Positions 5,609 to 31,952 of a stretch of DNA of 64,000 bases are shown here, piece after piece. The translations under genes were made by a program, and so were the position numbers. The DNA is from a virus: positions 102,759 to 166,758 of IMG/VR virus record IMGVR_UViG_3300042922_000850. One strand, given 5' to 3'. The notes under the pieces were generated by a model, which saw only the letters and a program-made list of their open reading frames with translations, searched no databases and had not been told where the DNA came from. Positions within the stretch are counted from its first letter, which is position 1. Every line of letters starts with the position of its first letter.

Positions 5609-5622
5609 TAATATCGTATAAG

Positions 5623-5660
5623 AAATAAAAGAGGATGAACAATATCCTCTTTTATTTTAT
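5623..5660 (+). terminator. Intrinsic terminator-like hairpin
   Basis: AAATAAAAGAGGAT-7 nt-ATCCTCTTTTATTT with T-rich tail. Confidence 0.65.
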
Positions 5661-7441: not shown

Positions 7442-7849
7442 ATGTCTAAATTGGTAAGCGCTAAATGCAAAAAATGCGGGAACTATCTTAATTTTGATAT
7501 TGGAAATATGGATAAAGAAGAAGCTGAGAACTCGCTTAAAGCAATCCGCAGTTGGCAATGTTCTGCCGGCAATCATGTAGAATTGATGTCACCCTTTGAT
7601 TTATACGAATTTGATTGGGATAATATCACAGAGAACGAACCCGTAACAGAAGAACAGTTTCAAGCAGATTTAAAAGAAAAGTTTAAGGAAGTATATTCTT
7701 CTGACGAATTTGGAGAAGCATATAGTATTGATAGCTTTGCTTTAGGGAAGTGCCTTTGCCACCCTCGCAATGGTGACGAGGATAGTATGATCATCTTTGA
7801 CTTTATTCACGGACCAAGCGGAAAGAGATATTATATATCCATGTTATAG
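7442..7849 (+). CDS. Hypothetical protein with putative Zn ribbon
   Basis: CKKC...CSAGNH; AAGGAG RBS. Confidence 0.65.
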   Translation: MSKLVSAKCKKCGNYLNFDIGNMDKEEAENSLKAIRSWQCSAGNHVELMSPFDLYEFDWDNITENEPVTEEQFQADLKEKFKEVYSSDEFGEAYSIDSFALGKCLCHPRNGDEDSMIIFDFIHGPSGKRYYISML

Positions 7850-7865
7850 AAAGGAAACCTCAATT

Positions 7866-9173
7866 ATGAGAAAAATTAAACTGGTAATTCTGCATAATTT
7901 TAAGTCTCATGCTCACAGCGAAATTCCATTCGATGATTTTACTGCGATAATCGGCCCATCGAATAGTGGCAAGTCAACAGTTTTTAAGGCTATTCGTCTG
8001 TGCTTATATAATGAACCATCAGGAGATCGATTCATTACGCATGGCGAAAAATTATGTTATGTAGAGGTAAGATTTGATGATAACTCCGGGATACGAAGAA
8101 CTCGTGGTAAGGATGACCAGGAGATAAACCTCTATGAAATCATTCATACAGATGGTAAAGTTGATCCCTATACAAATTTCGGGGCAGGTCCGGTTGCTCC
8201 CATTATCGCATTTCATGGTATGCCAAAAGTAAATTTATTTGGCGAAGAGGAATGTTTGAATATGGCAGACCAATTTTCTGCACCCTTTTTGCTAACCTCG
8301 ACTTCTGAAAAACGGGCAAAAATGATTGGTAAAATAGCTAAGACTGACGTCGCTGACCTTGCTCTCTCAAATCTTAATTCTGAGGTAAGAAATAGAACTG
8401 CCTTAAAGAAGAAATATACCAAGGAACTCAAAGAAAAACATGAATCACTCAAGGAACTAAAGGATTTGCCTTATGCTGAAAGCTTGATAGATTCGCTAGA
8501 CCTAAAACTTGATAAGGCGAAGAATATCGACAATAGACTAAGGCGAATTATGGTTATACAAAAAGAATTAGAAGCGCTGACGAAGAAAAAAGACAGTCTC
8601 TTTGATTTCATTCAAAAAGAAGCTGACATAAATAATCTGATCAATCAATTAGATGGGATATTGGCCTTAGACCACAGAATGACAAAGATAATAACCATCC
8701 AGAGGAATTTGATAAAGGCTATCGGAGAAAAAGATGCTACGCAAAGATTAATCGATACCGTAGATATGGATCAGCTTGGCGCTATTTGTATAGATATGGA
8801 TAAGCTTCTTTCCGTTACTGCAGATGTATTCCATATTCAAAAGATACAAGAAAAATTAGAGTCAGAGATAAAACGGAAGGGTATCGCAGAAAAAACAATT
8901 AAAGATGTTCCAGATGTTGATCTTATTGTCAGTGAATTGGAAAATTGCCGCTCAACCCTGCTAAGCTTAAACAATATTCTTTCGATTAAGTCAAAACTTG
9001 ATACAGAAAAGTTAAGGGTACCGAGAGGAAGAGAGGTTATAGCAAACCTTGAAAAACAATATACTGGTAAATTCGAAATATATAAGCAAGCTCTGATTGA
9101 TAATAAACAGTGTCCTGTCTGTCAATCAGAAATAACAGAGGAGAAAGTGGCCGCAATCACAGACTTGATGTAA
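7866..9173 (+). CDS. sbcC: SbcC/Rad50-like ATPase, N-terminal half (Walker A, coiled coil, zinc hook at C-terminus)
   Basis: HNFKSH, GPSNSGKS Walker A, Q-loop (ADQF), long coiled coil, CPVC hook ~20 aa before stop; no Walker B. Confidence 0.88.
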   Translation: MRKIKLVILHNFKSHAHSEIPFDDFTAIIGPSNSGKSTVFKAIRLCLYNEPSGDRFITHGEKLCYVEVRFDDNSGIRRTRGKDDQEINLYEIIHTDGKVDPYTNFGAGPVAPIIAFHGMPKVNLFGEEECLNMADQFSAPFLLTSTSEKRAKMIGKIAKTDVADLALSNLNSEVRNRTALKKKYTKELKEKHESLKELKDLPYAESLIDSLDLKLDKAKNIDNRLRRIMVIQKELEALTKKKDSLFDFIQKEADINNLINQLDGILALDHRMTKIITIQRNLIKAIGEKDATQRLIDTVDMDQLGAICIDMDKLLSVTADVFHIQKIQEKLESEIKRKGIAEKTIKDVPDVDLIVSELENCRSTLLSLNNILSIKSKLDTEKLRVPRGREVIANLEKQYTGKFEIYKQALIDNKQCPVCQSEITEEKVAAITDLM

Positions 9174-13023: not shown

Positions 13024-14004
13024 TTGCTCGGTAAACCGTGGACAGATGCAGATAAAGACTTCTTAATTAAGTCATACGCTGAAGAAAGTATCGAATACAT
13101 ATCTGATTATCTAGGCAGAAGTAAAAATGCTGTTATGGCCAAAGCCAGAGAACTTGACTTGAAAAAGATAGTCAAAAAGAATACTTGGACAGAACAAGAG
13201 ATTTCTTATTTGGTAAAGATGTACCCTAAACAAAGTGCCAAATACATCGCTAAGAAATTAGGGCGTGGGGTCGATGCGGTCTTCCGTATGGCACACAAAA
13301 TGAATTTAACAAAGAAAAGGGGCAGAAAAGCAAAACCCAGATGGACACAAGACGAAATATTCTACCTCACAAATTTATATGCAACAAAAGATATTAAAAA
13401 GATTGCGGAAAGATTAGGAAGAACGGAATCGGCTGTAATTCATAAGGCTTCACAACTTCATTTATTCAGGGAGAAGAATTACAATCGAAACGGTGTTCCT
13501 TGGGCAGACTCGGAGTTCGATTATCTGAGAAAACACTATGCAACAAAGAATACCGTAACGCTATCCATTGAGATGGATCGCCCAATAAGCACTATTCAGG
13601 AGTATGCAGCTAGGATGGGTATACACAAGAAAAGAGCCGCCGCACCTAAGCCACTTCGAAAAATAAGTCATGGCGGTATAGGGAAGTGGACGGATTGGGA
13701 ATCGCAATATCTTAGAGAGACGTATGATATATTCCATTGGAAACACATGCGTTATGATGCATTGTGTCGTTCTCCCAAGTCAATCAACAAAAGATTAAAA
13801 ACCATGGGACTATACGAACTACGTGTACGAAGAGTTCGTAGTTATACGGTAGTTTTTTATTACCGAACAGAAGAAGAACTGAGACAAAAATGGGAATATG
13901 TGAATTTTTGGAAAGAGGTGACAAACGATGCTTACCCAGGATCAAGAAAAGATGGCTACAGATTTCGAGGCAGCATTGCAGCAGTTGAAAGAGGCTGTAA
14001 GTAA
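13024..14004 (+). CDS. Protein of five tandem Myb/SANT-like (homeodomain-like HTH) repeats
   Basis: Five ~50-aa repeats W(T/A)xxExxYLxxxY...LGRSxxAVxxKAxxLxL; very basic. Confidence 0.75.
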   Translation: MLGKPWTDADKDFLIKSYAEESIEYISDYLGRSKNAVMAKARELDLKKIVKKNTWTEQEISYLVKMYPKQSAKYIAKKLGRGVDAVFRMAHKMNLTKKRGRKAKPRWTQDEIFYLTNLYATKDIKKIAERLGRTESAVIHKASQLHLFREKNYNRNGVPWADSEFDYLRKHYATKNTVTLSIEMDRPISTIQEYAARMGIHKKRAAAPKPLRKISHGGIGKWTDWESQYLRETYDIFHWKHMRYDALCRSPKSINKRLKTMGLYELRVRRVRSYTVVFYYRTEEELRQKWEYVNFWKEVTNDAYPGSRKDGYRFRGSIAAVERGCK

Positions 14005-14620
14005 AATGCGATTTAGAAAGGAAACTCTTCTAAACGACTCTGAAAAGTTACAAAAAGACATCGATGATTTAAAGATTGGTGATTATGATAAGGCAGCTAT
14101 CCTGATGAATAAATTAGCAAACAATCAACGGGCAGCGGCAAGTGAACAGTTATCTAAATTAGGGACGATGGCGTTACAGTATACTTTTGGCCCTAACTAT
14201 GAGATGCAAATTGAAATGGCAGGGACTTTGAAAAAGCCTAAAGCAGACATATGGTTTATTCAAGATGGAAAAGTCGATGAAAGAGAAGATCCGATGGAAG
14301 ACAATGGTGGTGGCGTTGTCGATATTATTGGTTCCTCCATGCGCGTAGTGATTATGGATAACTATTCTGATGCTTCAAAAGGAATTCCTTATATTGATGG
14401 ACCGATCCTATTTGATGAACCCTTCAAGATGGTTAGTAGTGAATACATACCTCAAATGAGCGAATTTATTTCTAACGTAGCGAAGGATTTTAACCGACAG
14501 GTTATTGCGGTAACCCATAACGATTATCTATCATCTATGACAGACTCAAACATTTTTATCTCATTGGATGAGAACAAAAGGAGCGTTGTCGTTATACAAA
14601 AGAACAAAAAGGAGGAATAA
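13928..14620 (+). CDS. sbcC: SbcC/Rad50-like ATPase, C-terminal half (signature, Walker B, H-loop)
   Basis: NGGGVVD signature variant, ILFDEPF Walker B/D-loop, IAVTHN H-loop; GAGGTG RBS. Confidence 0.85.
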   Translation: MLTQDQEKMATDFEAALQQLKEAVSKMRFRKETLLNDSEKLQKDIDDLKIGDYDKAAILMNKLANNQRAAASEQLSKLGTMALQYTFGPNYEMQIEMAGTLKKPKADIWFIQDGKVDEREDPMEDNGGGVVDIIGSSMRVVIMDNYSDASKGIPYIDGPILFDEPFKMVSSEYIPQMSEFISNVAKDFNRQVIAVTHNDYLSSMTDSNIFISLDENKRSVVVIQKNKKEE

Positions 14621-15731: not shown

Positions 15732-15884
15732 TCTCAAATATTTCTCGTATAAGAAAGGTGAAGCGGGGCAACCCCGCCTGGAAACGATAATATACAGGCT
15801 TGTTATATAGTATGTTTGTAAGGTTAGCAAATAAAACAAATAACCATATTATCAACGAAATACAAAATATAACTATAATACTAG

Positions 15885-15916
15885 GCTCTTGGCGGTTTGC
15901 CAAGAGCTATTTATTT
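15885..15916 (+). terminator. Intrinsic terminator-like hairpin
   Basis: GCTCTTGGC-ggttt-GCCAAGAGC then TATTTATTT. Confidence 0.6.
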
Positions 15917-15942
15917 CATTAAATTTTATGGTATAAGAAAGA

Positions 15943-15973
15943 AAAGGTAGAGAAGACACGATTCTCTACCTTT
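15943..15973 (+). promoter_or_regulatory. Leader hairpin immediately after GTATAAGAAA motif
   Basis: AAAGGTAGAGAA-7 nt-TTCTCTACCTTT upstream of gene at 16005. Confidence 0.45.
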
Positions 15974-16004
15974 AAATAATTTTATTTAAAGGAGGATAAA
16001 AACT

Positions 16005-16943
16005 ATGACTCAAAATTTAGAATCAGTTTTATCATTTTTATTAAGACCGGCGGTAGAATATAACCTGCCGCAGAAAAAATATTGGGGAACAGTGGTTAAA
16101 GAAAATTCAATGTTAGTTGCTTCTGGTAGTTTCACAATTGAAATCGGGAACATTCATTTCGACAAAAAGCCAGATGGAGAGTATTTTAGTTTTCTGGAGA
16201 GCAAGTTTGCTGAGTTTGCATATCCGCTAAATCCGGCTCAGATTCAAGAAAAAGTGAGTTCTCAGTGCAGCTTTGTTGGCAAGGTGGTATTCCCATTAAC
16301 AAATATTATTAACCGGTTGTCTGATATCGATAAGCAACTCGTACCTAATGGCAAGGATTCTATATTGAAACGCTGTAGACTTATCGTGTCTCCTGGGTTT
16401 TTAGAATCTGGAGATATGACACTAAAGTTTACAGACAATGGAAACGGGTGGGAATTCAAACATGCTTCTCTACCAAAACCAGTTCGCCTACACAAAGATT
16501 CTGTAATAGGACCTGACGGAATAAGAAAAGATACTGTGTACAGGTGCGAATTAAAAGATAGCGATGATCTTCTTGTAAATGTAATTGAACCGTATGGAAA
16601 AATGAGACTTGGTATTTTATATTCTCCAAAAGGATTTGTACCGGTGAATTTAGAGGAGATTAACCGAATGAGCGGTAAAATACCACCCGACATGATAATC
16701 TGTTCAAATATAATTGAACCGAACCCAATCCCGGCTCCACCAATTCATTTAGACGCTAGTACAATGTTCGATTTATTAAATGTATTTTTAATGTGCCAGA
16801 ACACAGAAAAGATAGAAATGCACTTACCTGATGATCCCAACAAACCGGTAATGTTTACTAACGTTCCTACGAGTGATGATGATTTAAGAATAAGAGTTGT
16901 TGTGGGAACGCTCAACCCGTTCTACGGAGCACAGAGGAGGTAA
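16005..16943 (+). CDS. Divergent sliding-clamp (DnaN/beta)-like protein (tentative)
   Basis: C-terminus HLDASTMFDLL...KIEMHLPDDPNKPVMFT...RVVVGTL resembles beta-clamp domain III (FNxxYLLDxL...VxIxxxxxxxPxxI...xVIMP); N-terminal GTVVKENSMLVASGS resembles GVLxxxxxxxxVATDG. Confidence 0.4.
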   Translation: MTQNLESVLSFLLRPAVEYNLPQKKYWGTVVKENSMLVASGSFTIEIGNIHFDKKPDGEYFSFLESKFAEFAYPLNPAQIQEKVSSQCSFVGKVVFPLTNIINRLSDIDKQLVPNGKDSILKRCRLIVSPGFLESGDMTLKFTDNGNGWEFKHASLPKPVRLHKDSVIGPDGIRKDTVYRCELKDSDDLLVNVIEPYGKMRLGILYSPKGFVPVNLEEINRMSGKIPPDMIICSNIIEPNPIPAPPIHLDASTMFDLLNVFLMCQNTEKIEMHLPDDPNKPVMFTNVPTSDDDLRIRVVVGTLNPFYGAQRR

Positions 16944-16950
16944 TTAGCTA

Positions 16951-17469
16951 GTGTATAGTACTTTTCATGAAAGGTTGGAAGAAGATGCGGATATTGACCT
17001 TGAGCACTTCAGTGTCTTGAGGCATACAGGCAAGGAGTTAATAGCGCAAGGGGAGAATATCGCCTATCCAATTTTCGCATATGGATGGGACTATCTTCTT
17101 TCAAGTACGTTGATTACAATCCATAACAATGACTTCAGGAAGGAAGTTAAAACAAAGTATCAAGAGGCATTTATTGATGCGGATGACCTGGACTTCATTC
17201 CAAGTGTACTAGAAGTCGCAGATGCTATTGATGAATATAATATGATTGTTATCCATGATTTTTATAAAAATAATGGATATTCTATCGATGATATTGATGT
17301 TATCATTGGAAATTATATTCAAGAGTTCTCATGCTCCATGGAGGATTGGGTTGAAGAAGTTTTTAGAGATTTTGGATACGCTTATTATGGTTCATCCGTA
17401 AGTCGGTGCCACGATATTACGGATGAATATGCTCCACAGAATATACTTCTAGTGGAATTTTTAAGATAG
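16951..17469 (+). CDS. Acidic paralogue array member 1
   Basis: IPSVLEVADAIDEYN, EVFRDFGYAY, APQNILLVEF; GAGGAGG RBS, GTG start. Confidence 0.75.
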   Translation: MYSTFHERLEEDADIDLEHFSVLRHTGKELIAQGENIAYPIFAYGWDYLLSSTLITIHNNDFRKEVKTKYQEAFIDADDLDFIPSVLEVADAIDEYNMIVIHDFYKNNGYSIDDIDVIIGNYIQEFSCSMEDWVEEVFRDFGYAYYGSSVSRCHDITDEYAPQNILLVEFLR

Positions 17470-17482
17470 GAGGCACTAATTT

Positions 17483-18127
17483 ATGAACAACCTCGCAATA
17501 AAAGGGGACCATTCCTTAGAAACTAGTGACACCCCACGGGTATATTTCTATAACAAATATTATAATATGCCGGAAGCATACGACGCGGATACACTATGTA
17601 GTATGGTTATTAATCATCCACAGTATACAGAAGATAAGGAGGAGAACGAGAAGAGAATACTTCAAATCTATAATGATGTAATGGAACAGATGGGTGGCGA
17701 AGCTATCCCATCATTTATCGATATTACCGCTTCTGTTTCATCGTATAATGAAAATATATTTTATAATATAGCTGTTCTTCAAGTAATGGAAAATGGTTCA
17801 TATTTGGATGTGGACGATATTGAGGAGCTGCTCGAAGAGGAAACAACTTCCGTAATGGAGTGGTTTAGTTATAATTTAGAATATTGTAATTTGGATGACT
17901 CTATATTTGAACTGTTGCATAGAAATAAATTGTCCTTTTCGGTGTCTGAAGATGACTCACAATATGAAGATTTAATAAGAGTAGATGAGGTTGTTAGAAC
18001 TTTGCCAGAAGGCGGAAAAGAATATGACATTATAATTGCTGATTGCCAGAACATAATTCTCCCGTGCTTTGGAATTCGTGATTTCTTTTTACAAGACAAC
18101 CTTATCTTATATAGACCTGGGGAGTGA
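17483..18127 (+). CDS. Acidic paralogue array member 2
   Basis: IPSFIDITASVSSYN, ELLHRNKLSF, DCQNIILP. Confidence 0.8.
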   Translation: MNNLAIKGDHSLETSDTPRVYFYNKYYNMPEAYDADTLCSMVINHPQYTEDKEENEKRILQIYNDVMEQMGGEAIPSFIDITASVSSYNENIFYNIAVLQVMENGSYLDVDDIEELLEEETTSVMEWFSYNLEYCNLDDSIFELLHRNKLSFSVSEDDSQYEDLIRVDEVVRTLPEGGKEYDIIIADCQNIILPCFGIRDFFLQDNLILYRPGE

Positions 18128-18131
18128 AAAA

Positions 18132-18788
18132 ATGTTTGATTTAGATTTTGTCAACAAAAGTTTGGGTTTATGCGACGAACCATACATGTCAAACGAAGAT
18201 TTTCACAATCGGACAGAAGAAATACTAGGTTCGCTATTCTTAAGATCAAATTGCGTTACAAAAAAGGATTACCGAAAACATTGTGATTACATTTTCAAAT
18301 CATATGAGATTAACTTTAAAGCTGTGGGTGGGCCGCCAGATATTGAAGATATTATTCTTAATATTGAAACTGACAATTGGGAAAAAATGTTGGAACTTGG
18401 TAAATTAGATTTATGTTACGGACAAGGGAAACAGGGGTATTTAAAATTTATCAGCTATCAGGATTTTGAAAAAGACTTTATGGCGGAACAAGCAATTGAG
18501 AAATTGGCCGAAATGTGGTATACCGATTATCATTTTGAGGATTCTGACGATATGTTCGAATATGTTATGAAAATCTTGAATGAGCACAATTTAGCATACA
18601 CTTATCCAGAATCTAAATTGATTGAGTATCGCAAGGGTAAAAGAGAGATTGTTTGCTTCAACGACTGTCAGAATTTATTACTCCCGGAATGGCAGCTCCA
18701 TATGATTATTTCGCGAGGTGGCAGCCATGAATATACAGCGGATGAAATCAAAGCCCTGTTGAGTGTATCTATTATATCAAAAGATTAA
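18132..18788 (+). CDS. Acidic paralogue array member 3
   Basis: PPDIEDIILNIETDN, KILNEHNLAY, DCQNLLLPEW; GGGGAG RBS before ATG 18132. Confidence 0.8.
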   Translation: MFDLDFVNKSLGLCDEPYMSNEDFHNRTEEILGSLFLRSNCVTKKDYRKHCDYIFKSYEINFKAVGGPPDIEDIILNIETDNWEKMLELGKLDLCYGQGKQGYLKFISYQDFEKDFMAEQAIEKLAEMWYTDYHFEDSDDMFEYVMKILNEHNLAYTYPESKLIEYRKGKREIVCFNDCQNLLLPEWQLHMIISRGGSHEYTADEIKALLSVSIISKD

Positions 18789-18800
18789 GGAGGGAATTGT

Positions 18801-19451
18801 TTGAGCAATGAGATTTCTGTAAAAAACGATTATTCCGAGCAATTTGAAAACTTAATGAGTAAGATAGTCTCCTCTTTTGTGGACAAAGAGGAGACTCGTT
18901 ATAAAGCCCAAGAAAAAATAATCACGGATGCTTATATGGAGGTCTTAAATTATGGAGGAGATAGTGCGCCCGACTTTTCAGAAATTGTCTTGAATATAGA
19001 AGAGCGGAATTCCGATATATTGGCAGAACTAGCTGCTATGGATATGGAATGCGGAATGATGTGTCCGGAGCACTCTCATCAAGAACTGACATCATATTTT
19101 ATGGGGCCGGCAGAAGACGAAGAAGATAATTTGTACTCAGCATATTTAAGTGCATGGTATGAAGAATACTCGGCAGAATTTCGTTATGAGCTACCATATT
19201 TTATAAGCACAGTTTTGGAAGAATTGGGCTTTTGTTATTTGATTAGTGACGAGGCTGATGGGCCTAAAGATTATCAATATGGCTTATCGAATAACTTTGC
19301 CATTTATGTTAATGATGCACAAAATTTATTACTACAAGATTGGCATCTTAAAATACTTGCTGGAGACCGATTAGGTAACTACAGTTATACACAGCAAGAT
19401 ATAGAAAATTTGCTTAACATCAGATTTGATTCAAAACCAGAAAGGGGGTAA
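18801..19451 (+). CDS. Acidic paralogue array member 4
   Basis: APDFSEIVLNIEERN, TVLEELGFCY, DAQNLLLQDW. Confidence 0.8.
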   Translation: MSNEISVKNDYSEQFENLMSKIVSSFVDKEETRYKAQEKIITDAYMEVLNYGGDSAPDFSEIVLNIEERNSDILAELAAMDMECGMMCPEHSHQELTSYFMGPAEDEEDNLYSAYLSAWYEEYSAEFRYELPYFISTVLEELGFCYLISDEADGPKDYQYGLSNNFAIYVNDAQNLLLQDWHLKILAGDRLGNYSYTQQDIENLLNIRFDSKPERG

Positions 19452-19456
19452 ATAAT

Positions 19457-20086
19457 TTGTATGCTGTTGAAGAATCTAAAGAAACGCAACTATGCAGTTT
19501 CTACGAGGGGCGATTAGATGAATTGCTCGATGACATGTTTCTCGGGGAAAGCTGGATCGAGACACCTGAAGATTGGGAGCGCAAGGAAGAGAAGTTGATG
19601 GAAATCTATCAGGAGGTATGGACCAATGAGCTTGTTACAAAAACAGCCGTGCCGGAATTATCAGATATTTTAGATGCTGTTTACGATCACAATATGGAAA
19701 TACAATCAGAAATTGTGGCTCTCGATCTTGAATACGGCCAATATGGTGAACGGTCATTTTATGTAGAAGACTTTTACGACGATAAAGAAGATGCCCAAGA
19801 AGCTGTAGAAGAGGCTTGGGAAAACGACCTCAATATAGAGACTAATTATATGTACAACACAGATAGTTTGGTATTAAAAATATTGCATAAATTAAAATGC
19901 TCTTTCTTGGCAAACGAACAGACATTGCACGAATTCTTTTGTGAAGACTGGCCAGAGGGGTGTGATGCAGTAGTTGGTGATTGCCAGAATTTATTGCTTC
20001 CAGAATGGCATTTAGCGTCAATGCAAGAATATGAACACTCTGTGACAGACGAAGAAAGAATATTGGTACAATTGGTATCGAGGTGA
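19457..20086 (+). CDS. Acidic paralogue array member 5
   Basis: VPELSDILDAVYDHN, KILHKLKCSF, DCQNLLLPEW; ~25% D+E by hand count. Confidence 0.8.
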   Translation: MYAVEESKETQLCSFYEGRLDELLDDMFLGESWIETPEDWERKEEKLMEIYQEVWTNELVTKTAVPELSDILDAVYDHNMEIQSEIVALDLEYGQYGERSFYVEDFYDDKEDAQEAVEEAWENDLNIETNYMYNTDSLVLKILHKLKCSFLANEQTLHEFFCEDWPEGCDAVVGDCQNLLLPEWHLASMQEYEHSVTDEERILVQLVSR

Positions 20087-20090
20087 CGAC

Positions 20091-20456
20091 ATGAGTTATT
20101 TTTTAATACCGGACTACGGGACTCTTAATATAGGCTGTCCGTCAGGAGAAGATATATTAATCTATATGTACCGGGCTTACATGGATTGTTGCAAGCCGCA
20201 TAAGGTATTTGGTTATCTCTCCGATACAGCGCCAAGTTTATTTGAGTTTTATGATAGTCTGACAGACCAAGTGCACTCATCAGATCGCAGAACATTTTTA
20301 TTCCGAGGGATTGCATTAAACCGGGGAGAGCTAAGCGATCCATATTTTGTGGAGATGCTTTTAAAAGACTTCCTGTTTCAATATACGAGAGATGATGGGA
20401 TTGAGGGATGCGATTGCCAAAATATAATACTACAGGAGATGGTTGAAGATGAGTAG
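20091..20456 (+). CDS. Paralogue array member 6 (short)
   Basis: APSLFEFYDSL, MLLKDFLFQY, DCQNIILQE. Confidence 0.75.
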   Translation: MSYFLIPDYGTLNIGCPSGEDILIYMYRAYMDCCKPHKVFGYLSDTAPSLFEFYDSLTDQVHSSDRRTFLFRGIALNRGELSDPYFVEMLLKDFLFQYTRDDGIEGCDCQNIILQEMVEDE

Positions 20457-20760
20457 AGAAAGCAAGATAATCGAGGAGAAGATACTCTCAGAATACTTCA
20501 AGATTATAAGTGAAGGATTTGTTCCTCAAACAAAAGCTTTAAGAGAAAAGGTAAAGTACCGTATGGATGTAGAATGTTTTGATCTTATATACGGTCAAAC
20601 ATTTGAAGACGAGATAACGGAAAACGCAATACACGATGTTCTGTCGCTTTATAAGCATGTGCATTATCATGACGGAAAGCGGTTTTTCGAATGTCAAAAC
20701 CCATTATTTTTCGAGTGGTTTTCTTATCAGAAAATTCTACTGCTAACACAAAATCCTTAA
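20449..20760 (+). CDS. Paralogue array member 7 (short)
   Basis: DVLSLYKHVHY, ECQNPLFFEW. Confidence 0.7.
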   Translation: MSRESKIIEEKILSEYFKIISEGFVPQTKALREKVKYRMDVECFDLIYGQTFEDEITENAIHDVLSLYKHVHYHDGKRFFECQNPLFFEWFSYQKILLLTQNP

Positions 20761-20787
20761 TTATAAATGAGAGAGGATATATAGACT

Positions 20788-21528
20788 ATGATTAATACAA
20801 AATATCAAGCAGTAGAATGTTTTACGTTTTTGCAAAAGATTTGCTCCAGAAATGGATGTGAGGAATGTGAGGAGAAGTCATGCGGAGTTTTGTTTGTCGG
20901 CCAACACGCTTACTCTGCTACTGCCAATATTGTTGGGAGAATAGGTGTTAATGATAATCTTCCGATGGACAATCCAATTTTCTGGAGCTACGGCAGGGAG
21001 GGAGAAATTAATCGCCCAAGCCAAGATAAGTTTCTACTAAACACGAAGGGATACATTAAAAATAATCCATCCATGGGAGCATTTTTAAGCAGCGGTTTTA
21101 TAGATCGCTTTGATCATTACTTGAACAAAGCTCCTGCGAATGATTTCCGTATTCGCAGGAAAGATCTATTGGATCACTTAGACAGTCAAGGCTTAAGTTC
21201 GGCAAAACAAAACAAAATGAAAATACAAATTGGCTCAGCATTAACGGACGTGACATTTAATGCTGAGCCAATTAAATGGACAAAGGCAATGGATAGTCCA
21301 TTTTCATTTGAGTTGCCTCGCTTTGTATACCCTGGTACATATCAAAAAAGCAATATCGATAAAAACGTGGTCTGTTCTATCAATTTGCTATCTTTCTATG
21401 AAATTATTGCAAATGGGTTTACAGAGTATGAAATTATCCGTATTAAATACGACAACGCTGGCCCTGTTGTTATCGAGGGAAAAGCAAGAAATAAAAGTGA
21501 GGTTTTCTTTGCTGTATCTCAAATATGA
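20788..21528 (+). CDS. Divergent sliding-clamp (beta domains II-III)-like protein (tentative)
   Basis: CGVLFVGQHAYSATANIVG, DRFDHYLNK...FRIRRKDLLDHL and SINLLSFYEII...IRIKYDNAGPVVIEG...FFAVSQI follow the beta-clamp pattern GVL...VATDG, YPDY..VI...VDR..LL.AL, FN..YL.D.L...P..I...IMP. Confidence 0.5.
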   Translation: MINTKYQAVECFTFLQKICSRNGCEECEEKSCGVLFVGQHAYSATANIVGRIGVNDNLPMDNPIFWSYGREGEINRPSQDKFLLNTKGYIKNNPSMGAFLSSGFIDRFDHYLNKAPANDFRIRRKDLLDHLDSQGLSSAKQNKMKIQIGSALTDVTFNAEPIKWTKAMDSPFSFELPRFVYPGTYQKSNIDKNVVCSINLLSFYEIIANGFTEYEIIRIKYDNAGPVVIEGKARNKSEVFFAVSQI

Positions 21529-21628
21529 TAACATAAAATTCTATCGTATAAGTAACAAAACAGGGAGAGTATAGGATAAAGTGGGCTAAAAAATAAAGTC
21601 ACTTCCTATATTTTTACTCTTTAAAAGT

Positions 21629-27124: not shown

Positions 27125-27476
27125 AAGTATTCGTTTCACTTTAAAAGAATTAATGGAGAGAGAGATCTATAAGCGAGCGAAACATATTAAATATGTGGAT
27201 AATGAAGGGTTGGATTTAAACATGGAGAAACCTATTCCGTCTGCGCCCGTGTTGTACTTCGAAGAATTAAAAGATGGCACGCTACTGGTAAAATTATGGG
27301 TCTGTAACAAAATGCCCGATGGATGGAGATTAAAATTTGGGGCATTAACAGCACCAAATGGTTTTCACTGGATATGTAACGGTAGAAGCAGATTTGATGT
27401 AGCGTACCGTGTAGCTTTATTGAGAGCCTATAATCAAACGTCTGAAACAACGCCGAATTTATGGTATAAGAAATAA
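27117..27476 (+). CDS. Hypothetical protein
   Basis: Overlaps previous stop; coding-like. Confidence 0.6.
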   Translation: MSRSIRFTLKELMEREIYKRAKHIKYVDNEGLDLNMEKPIPSAPVLYFEELKDGTLLVKLWVCNKMPDGWRLKFGALTAPNGFHWICNGRSRFDVAYRVALLRAYNQTSETTPNLWYKK

Positions 27477-27501
27477 AACAAAAGCGAAAGGAGCAACAAT
27501 T

Positions 27502-30059: not shown

Positions 30060-31952
30060 TTGATTATAGTTGGTTTTGATTTCAAAAAGAACATGATCGT
30101 CATGGTTACACAAACACAAGAAGATTACGATGTACTACGTGCACAACGTGAACTCAGTAATATTGGCTGTTGCGAAATGCAGAAGTCGGTATTCGAGGTA
30201 CCGGTAAAAAGTGTCTATTCTCTCAATACTATTCTGGGCGCAATAAAAGACAGAATTACTGTTGATAATAGCTTTAATATCTGGAAACAGAAGCAAAAAG
30301 TCGTCGCACCGGTTTTAATTCGGTGCGGCGTAATTTATAGTCGGGTTTATCCAGGGCAACTCCAATTACCGATAAAAGAAATTGAAGAAGCAACAAGGTT
30401 TTTCCTCAAAGCGGCTGTGAATATGAAAAAGTACAAAGAGGGGAAATGGGACGGATACGTTAATTTATACGATAGAAGAGAAAGAAAATTCCCGACCGGG
30501 TTGTTACCAAAAATACAGGAAGTACTTGATAAAAAGGAGATTCCGTATAATATAGAGATCGTTTATGAAGAGGCGCCAAAACCTGAGTTTAATTGGAGAG
30601 TGGAAGATGGCCTTACACCTGACCCCGATCAATACGATGCTATCGATGCAGGTATTAAAGGCAGGAGAGGCATTATTAAAGCTCCGACTGGATTTGGTAA
30701 AACGGCAATCCTGGCAAAGAGATTGACTGCTAATTTCAGTGTGCCAACTTTATTTGTTGCGAATAAAAAGACATTGCTTGATGATGCTGCCGAAGAGTTT
30801 AGGGATGGTATCAAGGGGCTGAAGAAGACTGATGTTATTCAGATTAAAGATGGTTGGTTTGGGAGTATTAAAATCGACGGTAACACAAAGGCGGAGGACA
30901 TTAAGCCGTTAACCGCTCCGATTATCGTTGCAACGATACAATCGTTGCATGCAAGATTTATTGACCCTAGAACAAAACCATATTTACTTCATTGGTTACA
31001 TAATGTCTGTAAGTTTGTTATGGTTGATGAAACACAGGCTGTCGGCACTCCGATATGGGATGAAGTACTTTCAGAATGCTATGCTCCGTATAGAATATTC
31101 TTATCTGCGACACCTAGAAGAACTGATGGAGCTACTATAAAAATAGAGGCTTATTCTGGATGTTGGTTATATTCCACTACTGCGGCAGAACAGATAGAAA
31201 AGGGTCGCTTATGTGAATTGGATATCCTCTATCAAACTTACGACCACCATCTATACAATGATGACGACGCTGACCTTGTGTACGCAGATATGTATCGCAT
31301 GTGTATTGTGGAAAATGATGAGCGCAACAAAGAGTGTGTTGTTAAGCCTACGCTAGAAATGCTCGCTGAAGGCCGCCACGTCCTCGTACTCATTCAATCT
31401 ATAGACCATGGCACAATTCTTCAAAGATTGTTTTACGAGGCTGGATTAGATGCAGAAGACGTTCGTTTTATATGGGGAGAAACTCCGGATAAAATTAGAA
31501 CAGCAGCAATTAAAGAATTTCGTAAGGGTGAATTTAAAGTTATGATTGGCAGTACTATCTTTGACGCGGGTGTAAATATCCCTGTTATTTCTGGGGTGGT
31601 CCTTGCCGGTGCAGGTAATTCTGATATCACACTAATTCAGCGTATTGGTAGGGGTGCGAGAAATTCTGATTATGAAGAAATTCTTGGATACCTGCCAGAG
31701 TTTATGAAAAAGAACGACGGGAAAAAGATTACAAAGGTATACGACATTATTGACATGAATAGTAAGTTCTTTCACAAACAGAGTAAGAACCGGTATTACA
31801 ACGCGCGTGAGGAATTTGGCGCAGACCGTGTGCACGTCGCGGGTGGAGACAACTCGGCTCTTCGGAAGACACCTAAACGAACTGTGGAAGTGCGGAAAGC
31901 AGTCGATCAATTTTCTGCCCAACTTGATATGTTGGACCAATTTGCAAGATAA
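30060..31952 (+). CDS. Superfamily 2 helicase (UvsW/Rad25-like, DExx)
   Basis: APTGFGKT, VMVDETQ, LSATP, IFDAGVNIP, QRIGRGAR. Confidence 0.92.
   Translation: MIIVGFDFKKNMIVMVTQTQEDYDVLRAQRELSNIGCCEMQKSVFEVPVKSVYSLNTILGAIKDRITVDNSFNIWKQKQKVVAPVLIRCGVIYSRVYPGQLQLPIKEIEEATRFFLKAAVNMKKYKEGKWDGYVNLYDRRERKFPTGLLPKIQEVLDKKEIPYNIEIVYEEAPKPEFNWRVEDGLTPDPDQYDAIDAGIKGRRGIIKAPTGFGKTAILAKRLTANFSVPTLFVANKKTLLDDAAEEFRDGIKGLKKTDVIQIKDGWFGSIKIDGNTKAEDIKPLTAPIIVATIQSLHARFIDPRTKPYLLHWLHNVCKFVMVDETQAVGTPIWDEVLSECYAPYRIFLSATPRRTDGATIKIEAYSGCWLYSTTAAEQIEKGRLCELDILYQTYDHHLYNDDDADLVYADMYRMCIVENDERNKECVVKPTLEMLAEGRHVLVLIQSIDHGTILQRLFYEAGLDAEDVRFIWGETPDKIRTAAIKEFRKGEFKVMIGSTIFDAGVNIPVISGVVLAGAGNSDITLIQRIGRGARNSDYEEILGYLPEFMKKNDGKKITKVYDIIDMNSKFFHKQSKNRYYNAREEFGADRVHVAGGDNSALRKTPKRTVEVRKAVDQFSAQLDMLDQFAR

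Follow-up and report, generated by a model that had tools for sequence, protein, structure and literature searches.

What do seven small and mostly very acidic proteins do in a phage that encodes them in a row between two sliding-clamp-like genes? The question is raised by a 64,000-nucleotide stretch of viral DNA (hereafter the window), which comprises bases 102759-166758 of IMG/VR record IMGVR_UViG_3300042922_000850, a complete virus of 166,758 bp with direct terminal repeats. A first-pass annotation, made from the letters of the window without database searches, had located nine open reading frames (ORFs) here, namely genes for a 312-aa and a 246-aa protein with clamp-like features (clampL, on the left, and clampR, on the right) and, between them, seven ORFs (m1-m7, the array) sharing a near-terminal motif that resembles clamp-binding peptides; it had read the locus as phage clamps with a diversified set of acidic clients. 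All nine ORFs were found on the + strand where they had been placed (Table 1), and the reading itself is supported by the clamp folds of the flanking proteins, a docking model for the 312-aa clamp, the synteny of the block and the co-variation of motif and clamp. We surmise, with moderate confidence, that the array proteins are a client family tethered to a phage-private clamp, and that the peptide and its pocket drift together as a pair in each lineage.

The by-eye assignment of the flanking genes to the clamps held up in structure prediction. AlphaFold2 models, built on small alignments of metagenomic orthologues, reached a pLDDT of 75 and a pTM of 0.72 for clampL and a pLDDT of 80 and a pTM of 0.81 for clampR. 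In Foldseek, all top PDB matches of clampL were DnaN, PCNA or 9-1-1, and clampR had at least 500 PDB matches, all of them clamps among the matches listed (best E 3e-8, TM 0.55). Alignment with VIA placed clampL on domains II-III of DnaN (Z 14.8, rmsd 3.7-4.4, 190-200 residues aligned), with residues 1-305 corresponding to DnaN 131-366, and clampR on the same two domains (Z 15.6, rmsd 3.3, 193 residues aligned). Because of these matches to DnaN domains II-III, both flanking proteins are, as modelled, two-domain clamp-fold proteins; a closed six-domain ring made from two-domain subunits would take a trimer or a mixed trimer. The structural neighbours of clampL in the ESM Atlas and BFVD are likewise clamps, the nearest viral models being short PolIII-beta-like processivity factors of Bacillus phages together with unnamed ~240-aa viral clusters. 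Neither Pfam at E <= 1 (with PF00712, PF02767, PF02768 and PF00705 among the families) nor PHROGs gave a match for clampL or clampR, and sequence-profile searches of the PDB with both proteins yielded nothing significant; the profile matches of clampR to an OSCP chain (E 4.5e-4) and to PCNA (E 0.31) were both judged to be noise. That clampL and clampR are recent duplicates of each other was ruled out, since hhalign of the two families shows no sequence similarity.

The seven ORFs in between are paralogues, as had been supposed. BLASTP, with E-values computed at a database size of 1e8, joins m2-m5 (E 1e-5 to 3e-7), and profile-profile comparison with hhalign adds m1 (probability 97%, E 1.3e-10 against the m2-m5 profile), m7 (E 6e-7 over 89 columns) and m6 (E 2.3e-7, confined to the C-terminal 38 columns). 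The strong acidity claimed for m1-m5 was confirmed and extends to m6, with a pI of 4.05-4.72 for m1-m6, and the hand count of 53 D/E vs. 13 K/R in m5 is exact; m7 is only mildly acidic. Equally exact are the ten-residue motif strings that had been quoted for the seven members, and the codons of the motif do vary synonymously as reported (CAG/CAA for Gln, AAT/AAC for Asn, TGC/TGT for Cys and five codons for Leu). At the nucleotide level the 30-nt motif has a mean identity of 0.61, and no DNA repeats were found besides the motif itself.

Table 1. Features of the clamp-array-clamp block and its surroundings in the window (positions count from the first base of the window; identity is between the window protein and its orthologue in the related phage L001)
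Feature	Position	Strand	Basis or remark	Identity to L001
Terminator-like hairpin closing the upstream unit	15884..15908	+	11-bp stem, 6 G-C pairs, then T-rich tail	
Phage promoter-like motif GTATAAGAAAGAAAA, 60 nt upstream of the 312-aa clamp gene	15931..15945	+	exact match to GTATAAGWRAKAAAA	
clampL (left clamp), 312-aa two-domain sliding-clamp-fold protein, predicted receptor of the array motif	16005..16943	+	structure model, Foldseek, VIA-align	63%
m1, 172 aa, pI 4.2, QNILLVEF two residues before C-terminus	16951..17469	+	hhalign; 1:1 orthologues in relatives	51%
m2, 214 aa, pI 4.05, QNIILPCF	17483..18127	+	BLASTP to m5 E 5e-5; HMM match; orthologues	37-46% (m2-m5)
m3, 218 aa, QNLLLPEW	18132..18788	+	BLASTP to m4 E 3e-7, to m5 E 1e-6	37-46% (m2-m5)
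m4, 216 aa, pI 4.1, QNLLLQDW	18801..19451	+	BLASTP, HMM match, orthologues	37-46% (m2-m5)
m5, 209 aa, QNLLLPEW at residues 177-184, chain in the complex model	19457..20086	+	BLASTP; charge count	37-46% (m2-m5)
m6, 121 aa, pI 4.3, QNIILQEM four residues before C-terminus	20091..20456	+	hhalign; orthologues	63%
m7, 105 aa, pI 5.8, QNPLFFEW	20443..20760	+	hhalign; orthologues	56%
clampR (right clamp), 246-aa two-domain sliding-clamp-fold protein	20788..21528	+	structure model, Foldseek, VIA-align	55%
Next promoter-like motif, between clampR stop and primase gene, at the downstream unit boundary	21546..21560	+	one mismatch	
HD-domain protein		+	replication module	
SbcC-like ATPase		+	replication module	
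DnaE-type Pol III alpha, 1185 aa, full (PHP, alpha, finger, HhH, OB domains)		+	replication module	71%
Toprim primase, 1070 aa, P-loop C-terminal part		+	replication module	77%
UvsW-like helicase	30060..31952	+	replication module	

Related modules were compared at seven loci from six other phages (L001, L002/L003, L004/L005, L007, L017 and L018). All seven have the left clamp first, then the array genes, the right clamp and the primase, with 5, 6 or 7 array genes per locus, so that the anticipated clamp-array-clamp synteny with variable copy number was indeed observed. The left clamps of distant relatives match at HMM E-values of 7e-75 to 4.5e-44, and array members have 1:1 orthologues across the relatives, distant phages having fewer of the ~210-aa members and L004 carrying a lineage-specific duplicate pair (37% identity). 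As for the linkage of homologues to clamp genes, array members are bracketed by clamp genes in all loci examined, but an eighth family member of 224 aa (motif NDCQNLLLPSWH) lies in the same genome outside the window and away from the clamp operon (genome 57516-58190, L012:2516-3190), immediately downstream of the phage RNase H gene (L012:1947-2498). Searches of GenBank phages with blastn and tblastn found no relative of the clamp-array module, the best DnaE matches there (~45% identity) being unannotated human-gut contigs without it, and scans of IMG/VR with clamp and array profiles gave no match.

An exhaustive profile search with the array family returned 105 cluster representatives at E <= 1e-10 and, for the superfamily, at least 179 at E <= 1e-3; a word-indexed search with the array profile found three close proteins only. 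Nearly all representatives are ~200 aa long, with a median pI of 4.25 over the 150 listed. Pfam and PHROGs gave nothing above noise for the array proteins, Pfam was also empty for 99 family members, a PDB sequence search had no match for the family, and ESM Atlas feature searches with two array proteins had none either. Across 151 aligned sequences the motif reads hhh-N-D-[C/A]-Q-N-[L/I/V]-L-[F/L]-P-[E/D]-[F/W]. We number it from its Gln as position 1, such that the residue after Gln (+1) is position 2, +3 is position 4 and +4 is position 5. The Gln is present in 150/150 aligned family members and in 44/44 motifs of seven genomes; position 2 is Asn in 101/151, position 3 is L, I or V, position 4 is mainly L (114/151), with I in 19/151 and M in 14/151, and position 5 is F (67/151) or L (40/151), with the exception of L017, whose six members all have Asn there. 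An acidic residue, E or D, occupies position 7, and most members have F or W at position 8. In nearly all members of the m1, m6 and m7 types the motif lies 1-13 residues from the C-terminus, the members of L018 having it further in, and in the ~210-aa members of the seven genomes it lies 9-51 residues from the C-terminus. A genome-wide regular-expression scan found the full motif nowhere outside the array family.

A complex of three chains (the 312-aa clamp, the 246-aa clamp and m5), each with its own alignment, was modelled in three runs, which scored 0.75, 0.70 and 0.02 (median 0.70) vs. 0.00 in all three controls, one of them with the 312-aa chain replaced. The pass mark of this score is reached by 58/80 solved complexes and by 2/110 mismatched pairs in the calibration of the tool, from whose set-up the present job differs. 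The runs share at least 33% of contacts, with a partner pLDDT of at least 68. In the model the tightest contacts of clampL are with m5 residues 174-185, i.e. the motif: Q177 and N178 pack on clampL 279-281 and 301-304, while L179-L181 and W184 pack on clampL 39-42, 75, 80 and 83-84. The contact segments of clampL overall (39-44, 74-87, 279-281 and 299-305) outline a docking site in the interdomain cleft beside the C-terminal strand, and by the linear VIA correspondence, which is approximate, segments 39-44 and 299-305 presumably fall roughly at the peptide cleft of DnaN. The basic tail of clampL that is invariant in the seven genomes, G-x-Q-R-R (window 16916-16943), is modelled with low confidence and also contacts the acidic partner. 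The predicted interface is more conserved than the rest of the 312-aa protein (mean 0.78 vs. 0.62, p 3e-5), with 12/43 invariant residues vs. 30/269 elsewhere (p 0.006). The first-pass annotation had expected the QNLLL peptide in the pocket of the flanking clamps; the model shows this for m5 in the cleft of the 312-aa clamp, but the motif was not placed on the 246-aa clamp, and the partner score of 0.00 with the 312-aa chain replaced is neither support for nor evidence against binding there.

A further line of evidence comes from how motif and clamp change across the seven related genomes and their 44 motifs. At +1, five genomes have Asn throughout their array members, and L007 and L018 lack it altogether; at +3, Met occurs in 5/6 members of L004 and Ile in 6/6 of L017; at +4, 6/6 members of L017 have Asn and the other phages Phe or Leu. 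Permutation within orthologous groups gave p <= 5e-5 for +1, +3 and +4 and p = 0.01 for +5; the values for +2, +6 and +7 were not significant. Gene conversion as the cause of this concerted change is argued against by the codons, which differ among the paralogues. As for the clamp, residues 279, 302, 304 and 305 of clampL, which are predicted to contact the +1 Asn, differ in precisely the two genomes without that Asn: they are N, T/S, N and P in the Asn genomes (T at 279 in L017), A, G, R and Q in L007, and K, P, D and W in L018. Because +1, +3 and +4 change genome by genome, although old paralogues should evolve by orthologous group, the array paralogues of one phage appear to track a common, phage-specific receptor, and the left clamp fits this role. 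We regard this co-variation as the strongest independent argument for a pairing of clamp and client, albeit a suggestive one.

Several points weigh against this pairing: 1) one of the three complex runs scored close to zero, and the docking may owe something to solved DnaN-peptide complexes that the model has memorised; 2) the hydrophobic register Q-x-h-h-h departs from the canonical QL[S/D]LF; 3) in m2-m5 the motif sits between the conserved strand-like hhh-N-D and a further 18-35 residues, and it may be partly structural; 4) the co-variation rests on seven genomes with common ancestry; 5) no AAA+ clamp loader (PF13177, delta'/gamma type) was found in the complete 166.8-kb genome; 6) DnaE, scanned after its HhH domain and at its C-terminus, shows no convincing Q-type motif like the array peptide. 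Some of these points are shared by an explanation that dispenses with clamps altogether, in which the motif belongs to the structure of the array domain and the proteins are free acidic DNA mimics or host-takeover proteins that merely lie in a replication operon. Extreme acidity across the family would suit it, as would a motif directly after a conserved hydrophobic stretch and N-D and internal in m2-m5, and the near-zero run counts here as well, as does the ability of such models to pass by likeness to solved clamp-peptide complexes. A structural motif, however, should track the orthologous group, and +1, +3 and +4 instead change across all paralogues of a genome; moreover, conservation in the 312-aa protein is highest on the predicted receptor surface, which also co-varies with +1, clamp genes bracket the array in all the contexts that were compared, and the complex controls scored 0.00. 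We therefore hold this explanation to be unlikely.

The identity of the receptor is the next issue, as the array could also comprise high-affinity decoys for the host beta clamp; these would block replication and repair in the host, with the phage itself relying on its own clamps. The Staphylococcus phages Twort and G1 are known to encode proteins that bind host DnaN, Q-x-x-L-F fits a loose beta-clamp motif, and both the replication autonomy of this phage and the fast evolution of m2-m5 would suit a host-directed role. The model, on the other hand, puts the motif on the phage clamp and drops to 0.00 once that clamp is replaced, the contact residues of the phage clamp co-vary with the motif, and the +4 Asn in six members of L017 is hard to fit with the conserved hydrophobic pocket of bacterial beta clamps. 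For these reasons we consider host-clamp decoys improbable, somewhat more so than a structural motif, while recognizing that the host clamp and the phage clamp are not mutually exclusive as targets.

The clamp-array-clamp block (window 15931-21545) looks like a single operon, judging from its sequence, because copies of the promoter-like motif bracket it (Table 1). No copy lies within the array, the gaps between its genes range from -14 to 27 nt, and a Shine-Dalgarno sequence precedes every gene. The start of m3 is most likely ATG 18132, not the overlapping TTG 18069 of the ORF list, because the ATG has the ribosome-binding site GGGGAG, lies 4 nt past the m2 stop and agrees with the length of the orthologues. 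The promoter-like motif is likewise found upstream of the orthologous left clamp gene in L004 and L007, and at the clampR-primase position in L001, L002, L004 and L007. Over the window as a whole, GTATAAGWRAKAAAA recurs just before + strand gene blocks (5616-5630, 15931-15945, 21546-21560 and 27464-27478), and it is very dense in the 75-105 kb region of the genome (15 copies in L013 and 12 in L014).

The operon belongs to a tailed phage whose replication module occupies the + strand half of the window, with tail, baseplate and lysis genes on the - strand half. Elsewhere in the genome (25094-31999, minus strand; L010:5094-11999) it encodes a fused beta-beta' multisubunit-type RNA polymerase of 2301 aa, with Rpb2 and Rpb1 domains in one ORF. 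Because it has its own DnaE/primase/helicase module as well as this polymerase, the phage is largely self-sufficient for replication and transcription. The polymerase opens a further possibility, namely that part of the array acts in transcription, as co-activators resembling T4 gp33/gp55 or Mu MuC that tie the phage RNA polymerase to a DNA-loaded clamp and so couple late transcription to replication. In T4, clamp-binding motifs at the C-termini of gp33 and gp55 attach these proteins to gp45 (PMC7892883), motifs of this kind serve the Mor/MuC factors on the beta clamp (PMC12867686), and m1, m6 and m7 are small, acidic and evolutionarily stable. Against this, the array proteins have no similarity in Pfam or PHROGs to gp33, gp55, sigma factors or Mor/MuC, and five to eight paralogues exceed the need, so that we give this role little credence, less than that of host-clamp decoys.

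The lack of a detectable loader raises yet another function for the array. The P-loop ORFs of the genome are a thymidylate kinase, helicases, the SbcC-like protein and the C-terminal domain of the primase, none of them loader-like; a host loader or a divergent phage loader may still serve the clamps. Conceivably, the array proteins themselves replace a clamp loader or unloader, their acidic, DNA-like bodies keeping the clamp-fold proteins off DNA or open until delivery. An array co-transcribed with the clamps, as the operon signals indicate, would agree with such a function, as would the missing AAA+ loader, but no member has an ATPase motif, many paralogues of differing size would be needless, and a host loader or loader-independent clamps, such as UL42/UL44 of herpesviruses, are simpler. 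This is the explanation that we find the least plausible, and a very unlikely one.

In ranking these explanations we place clamp-tethered adaptors or competitors first, followed by a structural motif, host-clamp decoys, transcription coupling and loader substitutes. For the client family tethered to a phage-private clamp, we postulate the following mechanism. The operon would encode two highly divergent clamp-fold proteins with seven acidic paralogues between them, and the C-terminal or near-C-terminal Q-x-h-[L/I/M]-[F/L]-P-[E/D]-aromatic would act as a clamp-binding motif, its Gln and the next residue packing on the C-terminal strand of the 312-aa clamp and its hydrophobic residues entering the cleft between the two domains. 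The acidic bodies most likely would serve as adaptors or competitors on clamp-loaded phage DNA, a role that we infer. The stable members m1, m6 and m7 may have fixed roles, whereas the fast-evolving ~210-aa members, which seem to undergo birth and death, may be directed at partners that vary, perhaps DNA-binding proteins of the host.

Whether the 312-aa clamp serves the replicative polymerase is another matter. Canonical DnaN (PF02768) was not detected in the complete genome, although the phage has its own DnaE, and the lack of an array-like peptide in DnaE makes it less certain that the phage uses the 312-aa protein as its replicative processivity factor. A more elaborate proposal, which we regard as rather speculative, is that the 312-aa protein is a DNA-tracking platform instead, with an orthogonal, lineage-specific peptide code, carrying a changing set of acidic DNA-mimic decoys along phage DNA as it replicates, as a guard against host nucleases, defence systems or nucleoid proteins, while the 246-aa or the host clamp serves DnaE and the helicase via a canonical QLDML-type tail.

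How does this module compare with known clamp systems? It is like DnaN in that both flanking proteins match domains II-III of that clamp and in that the predicted docking site of the array peptide is in the interdomain cleft next to the C-terminal strand; it is unlike DnaN in that the phage clamps have two domains, not three, and no Pfam DnaN signal, that peptide and pocket drift by lineage, including an Asn at position 5 in one case, and that the clients form a single expanded family of paralogues, with genes lying between those of the clamps. For the client peptides of the beta clamp, the motifs QL[S/D]LF and Qx[D/E][L/M]F have been quoted (PMC12867686). The array peptide shares with them an invariant leading Gln and, at pentapeptide positions 4 and 5, L followed by F or L. 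Its hydrophobic residues, however, are at positions 3-5 and not 2, 4 and 5, position 2 being mostly Asn instead of hydrophobic and position 3 L/I/V instead of small or acidic, and it has a conserved P-E-aromatic extension. The PIP box of PCNA (Qxx[L/I/M]xx[F/Y][F/Y]) is similar in its Gln 1, Leu/Ile/Met 4 and aromatic 8, and PCNA also has a two-domain subunit; in the array peptide, in contrast, position 7 is Glu/Asp and not aromatic, and position 5 is hydrophobic and co-evolving.

Among phage systems, T4 gp45 and Mu MuC resemble the module in that small proteins other than polymerases use a sliding clamp as their platform, attaching through a short, mostly C-terminal hydrophobic peptide, and gp45 is also a two-domain clamp, with gp43 and ligase as further clients. 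They differ from it in having no sequence relation and in their unrelated single client proteins, as opposed to the five to eight very acidic paralogues here, and our phage has two different clamp-fold genes and no gp44/62-type loader that was found. The short processivity factors of Bacillus phages, e.g. vB_BcM_Sam46 gp53 (PMC8190038), are two-domain beta-type phage clamps and the nearest viral neighbours of the 312-aa protein, but have no detectable sequence similarity to it. The acidic DNA mimics Ocr, ArdA and Ugi share with the array proteins a very low pI and phage origin; compared by sequence and acidity alone, they differ in that the array proteins have no Pfam, PHROG or PDB sequence match. 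Ocr, ArdA and Ugi act free in the cytoplasm and are not known to have a clamp-docking peptide.

Some observations on neighbouring genes are of interest in their own right. The C-terminus of the UvsW-like helicase (window 31920-31949) reads S-A-Q-L-D-M-L-D-Q-F-A-R, a near-canonical beta-type clamp-binding tail that is kept in L007 (S-A-Q-L-D-M-L-N-G-F) and recognisable in L018 (A-Q-Y-G-V-M-N-E-F), and thus a second, distinct class of putative clamp peptide within one phage. The SbcC/Rad50-like ATPase is apparently split, with an N-terminal Walker A half (AAA_23/AAA_15) upstream of DnaE (window 7797-9173) and a 230-aa 'ATPase' (phrog_15167; window 13928-14620) downstream of DnaE and a helix-turn-helix gene, a layout shared by the relatives. 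DnaE is intact in the window; in L004:1-4162 a LAGLIDADG endonuclease gene separates two DnaE parts, and in L018:1037-6077 DnaE is in three pieces, accompanied by an HNH_repeat protein. Immediately upstream of the left clamp gene of L017, and in that distant relative only, lies a radical SAM gene (L017:7057-7782).

Work on DNA is universally organised through clamps and short peptides that dock on them. Here, a phage encodes two clamps that sequence does not reveal as such and, with them, an expanded client family of its own, and the peptide-pocket pair seems to drift as a private code. If confirmed, the lineages of this phage would provide a natural set of orthogonal clamp-peptide pairs, in which up to seven paralogues that change in parallel indicate the partner they bind, and a fairly large new protein family (at least 179 clusters) would gain its first functional handle. 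In that case the module may also represent a new route by which phages control or protect replication forks. It further implies that replication-autonomous DnaE phages can carry clamps that are missed by sequence annotation.

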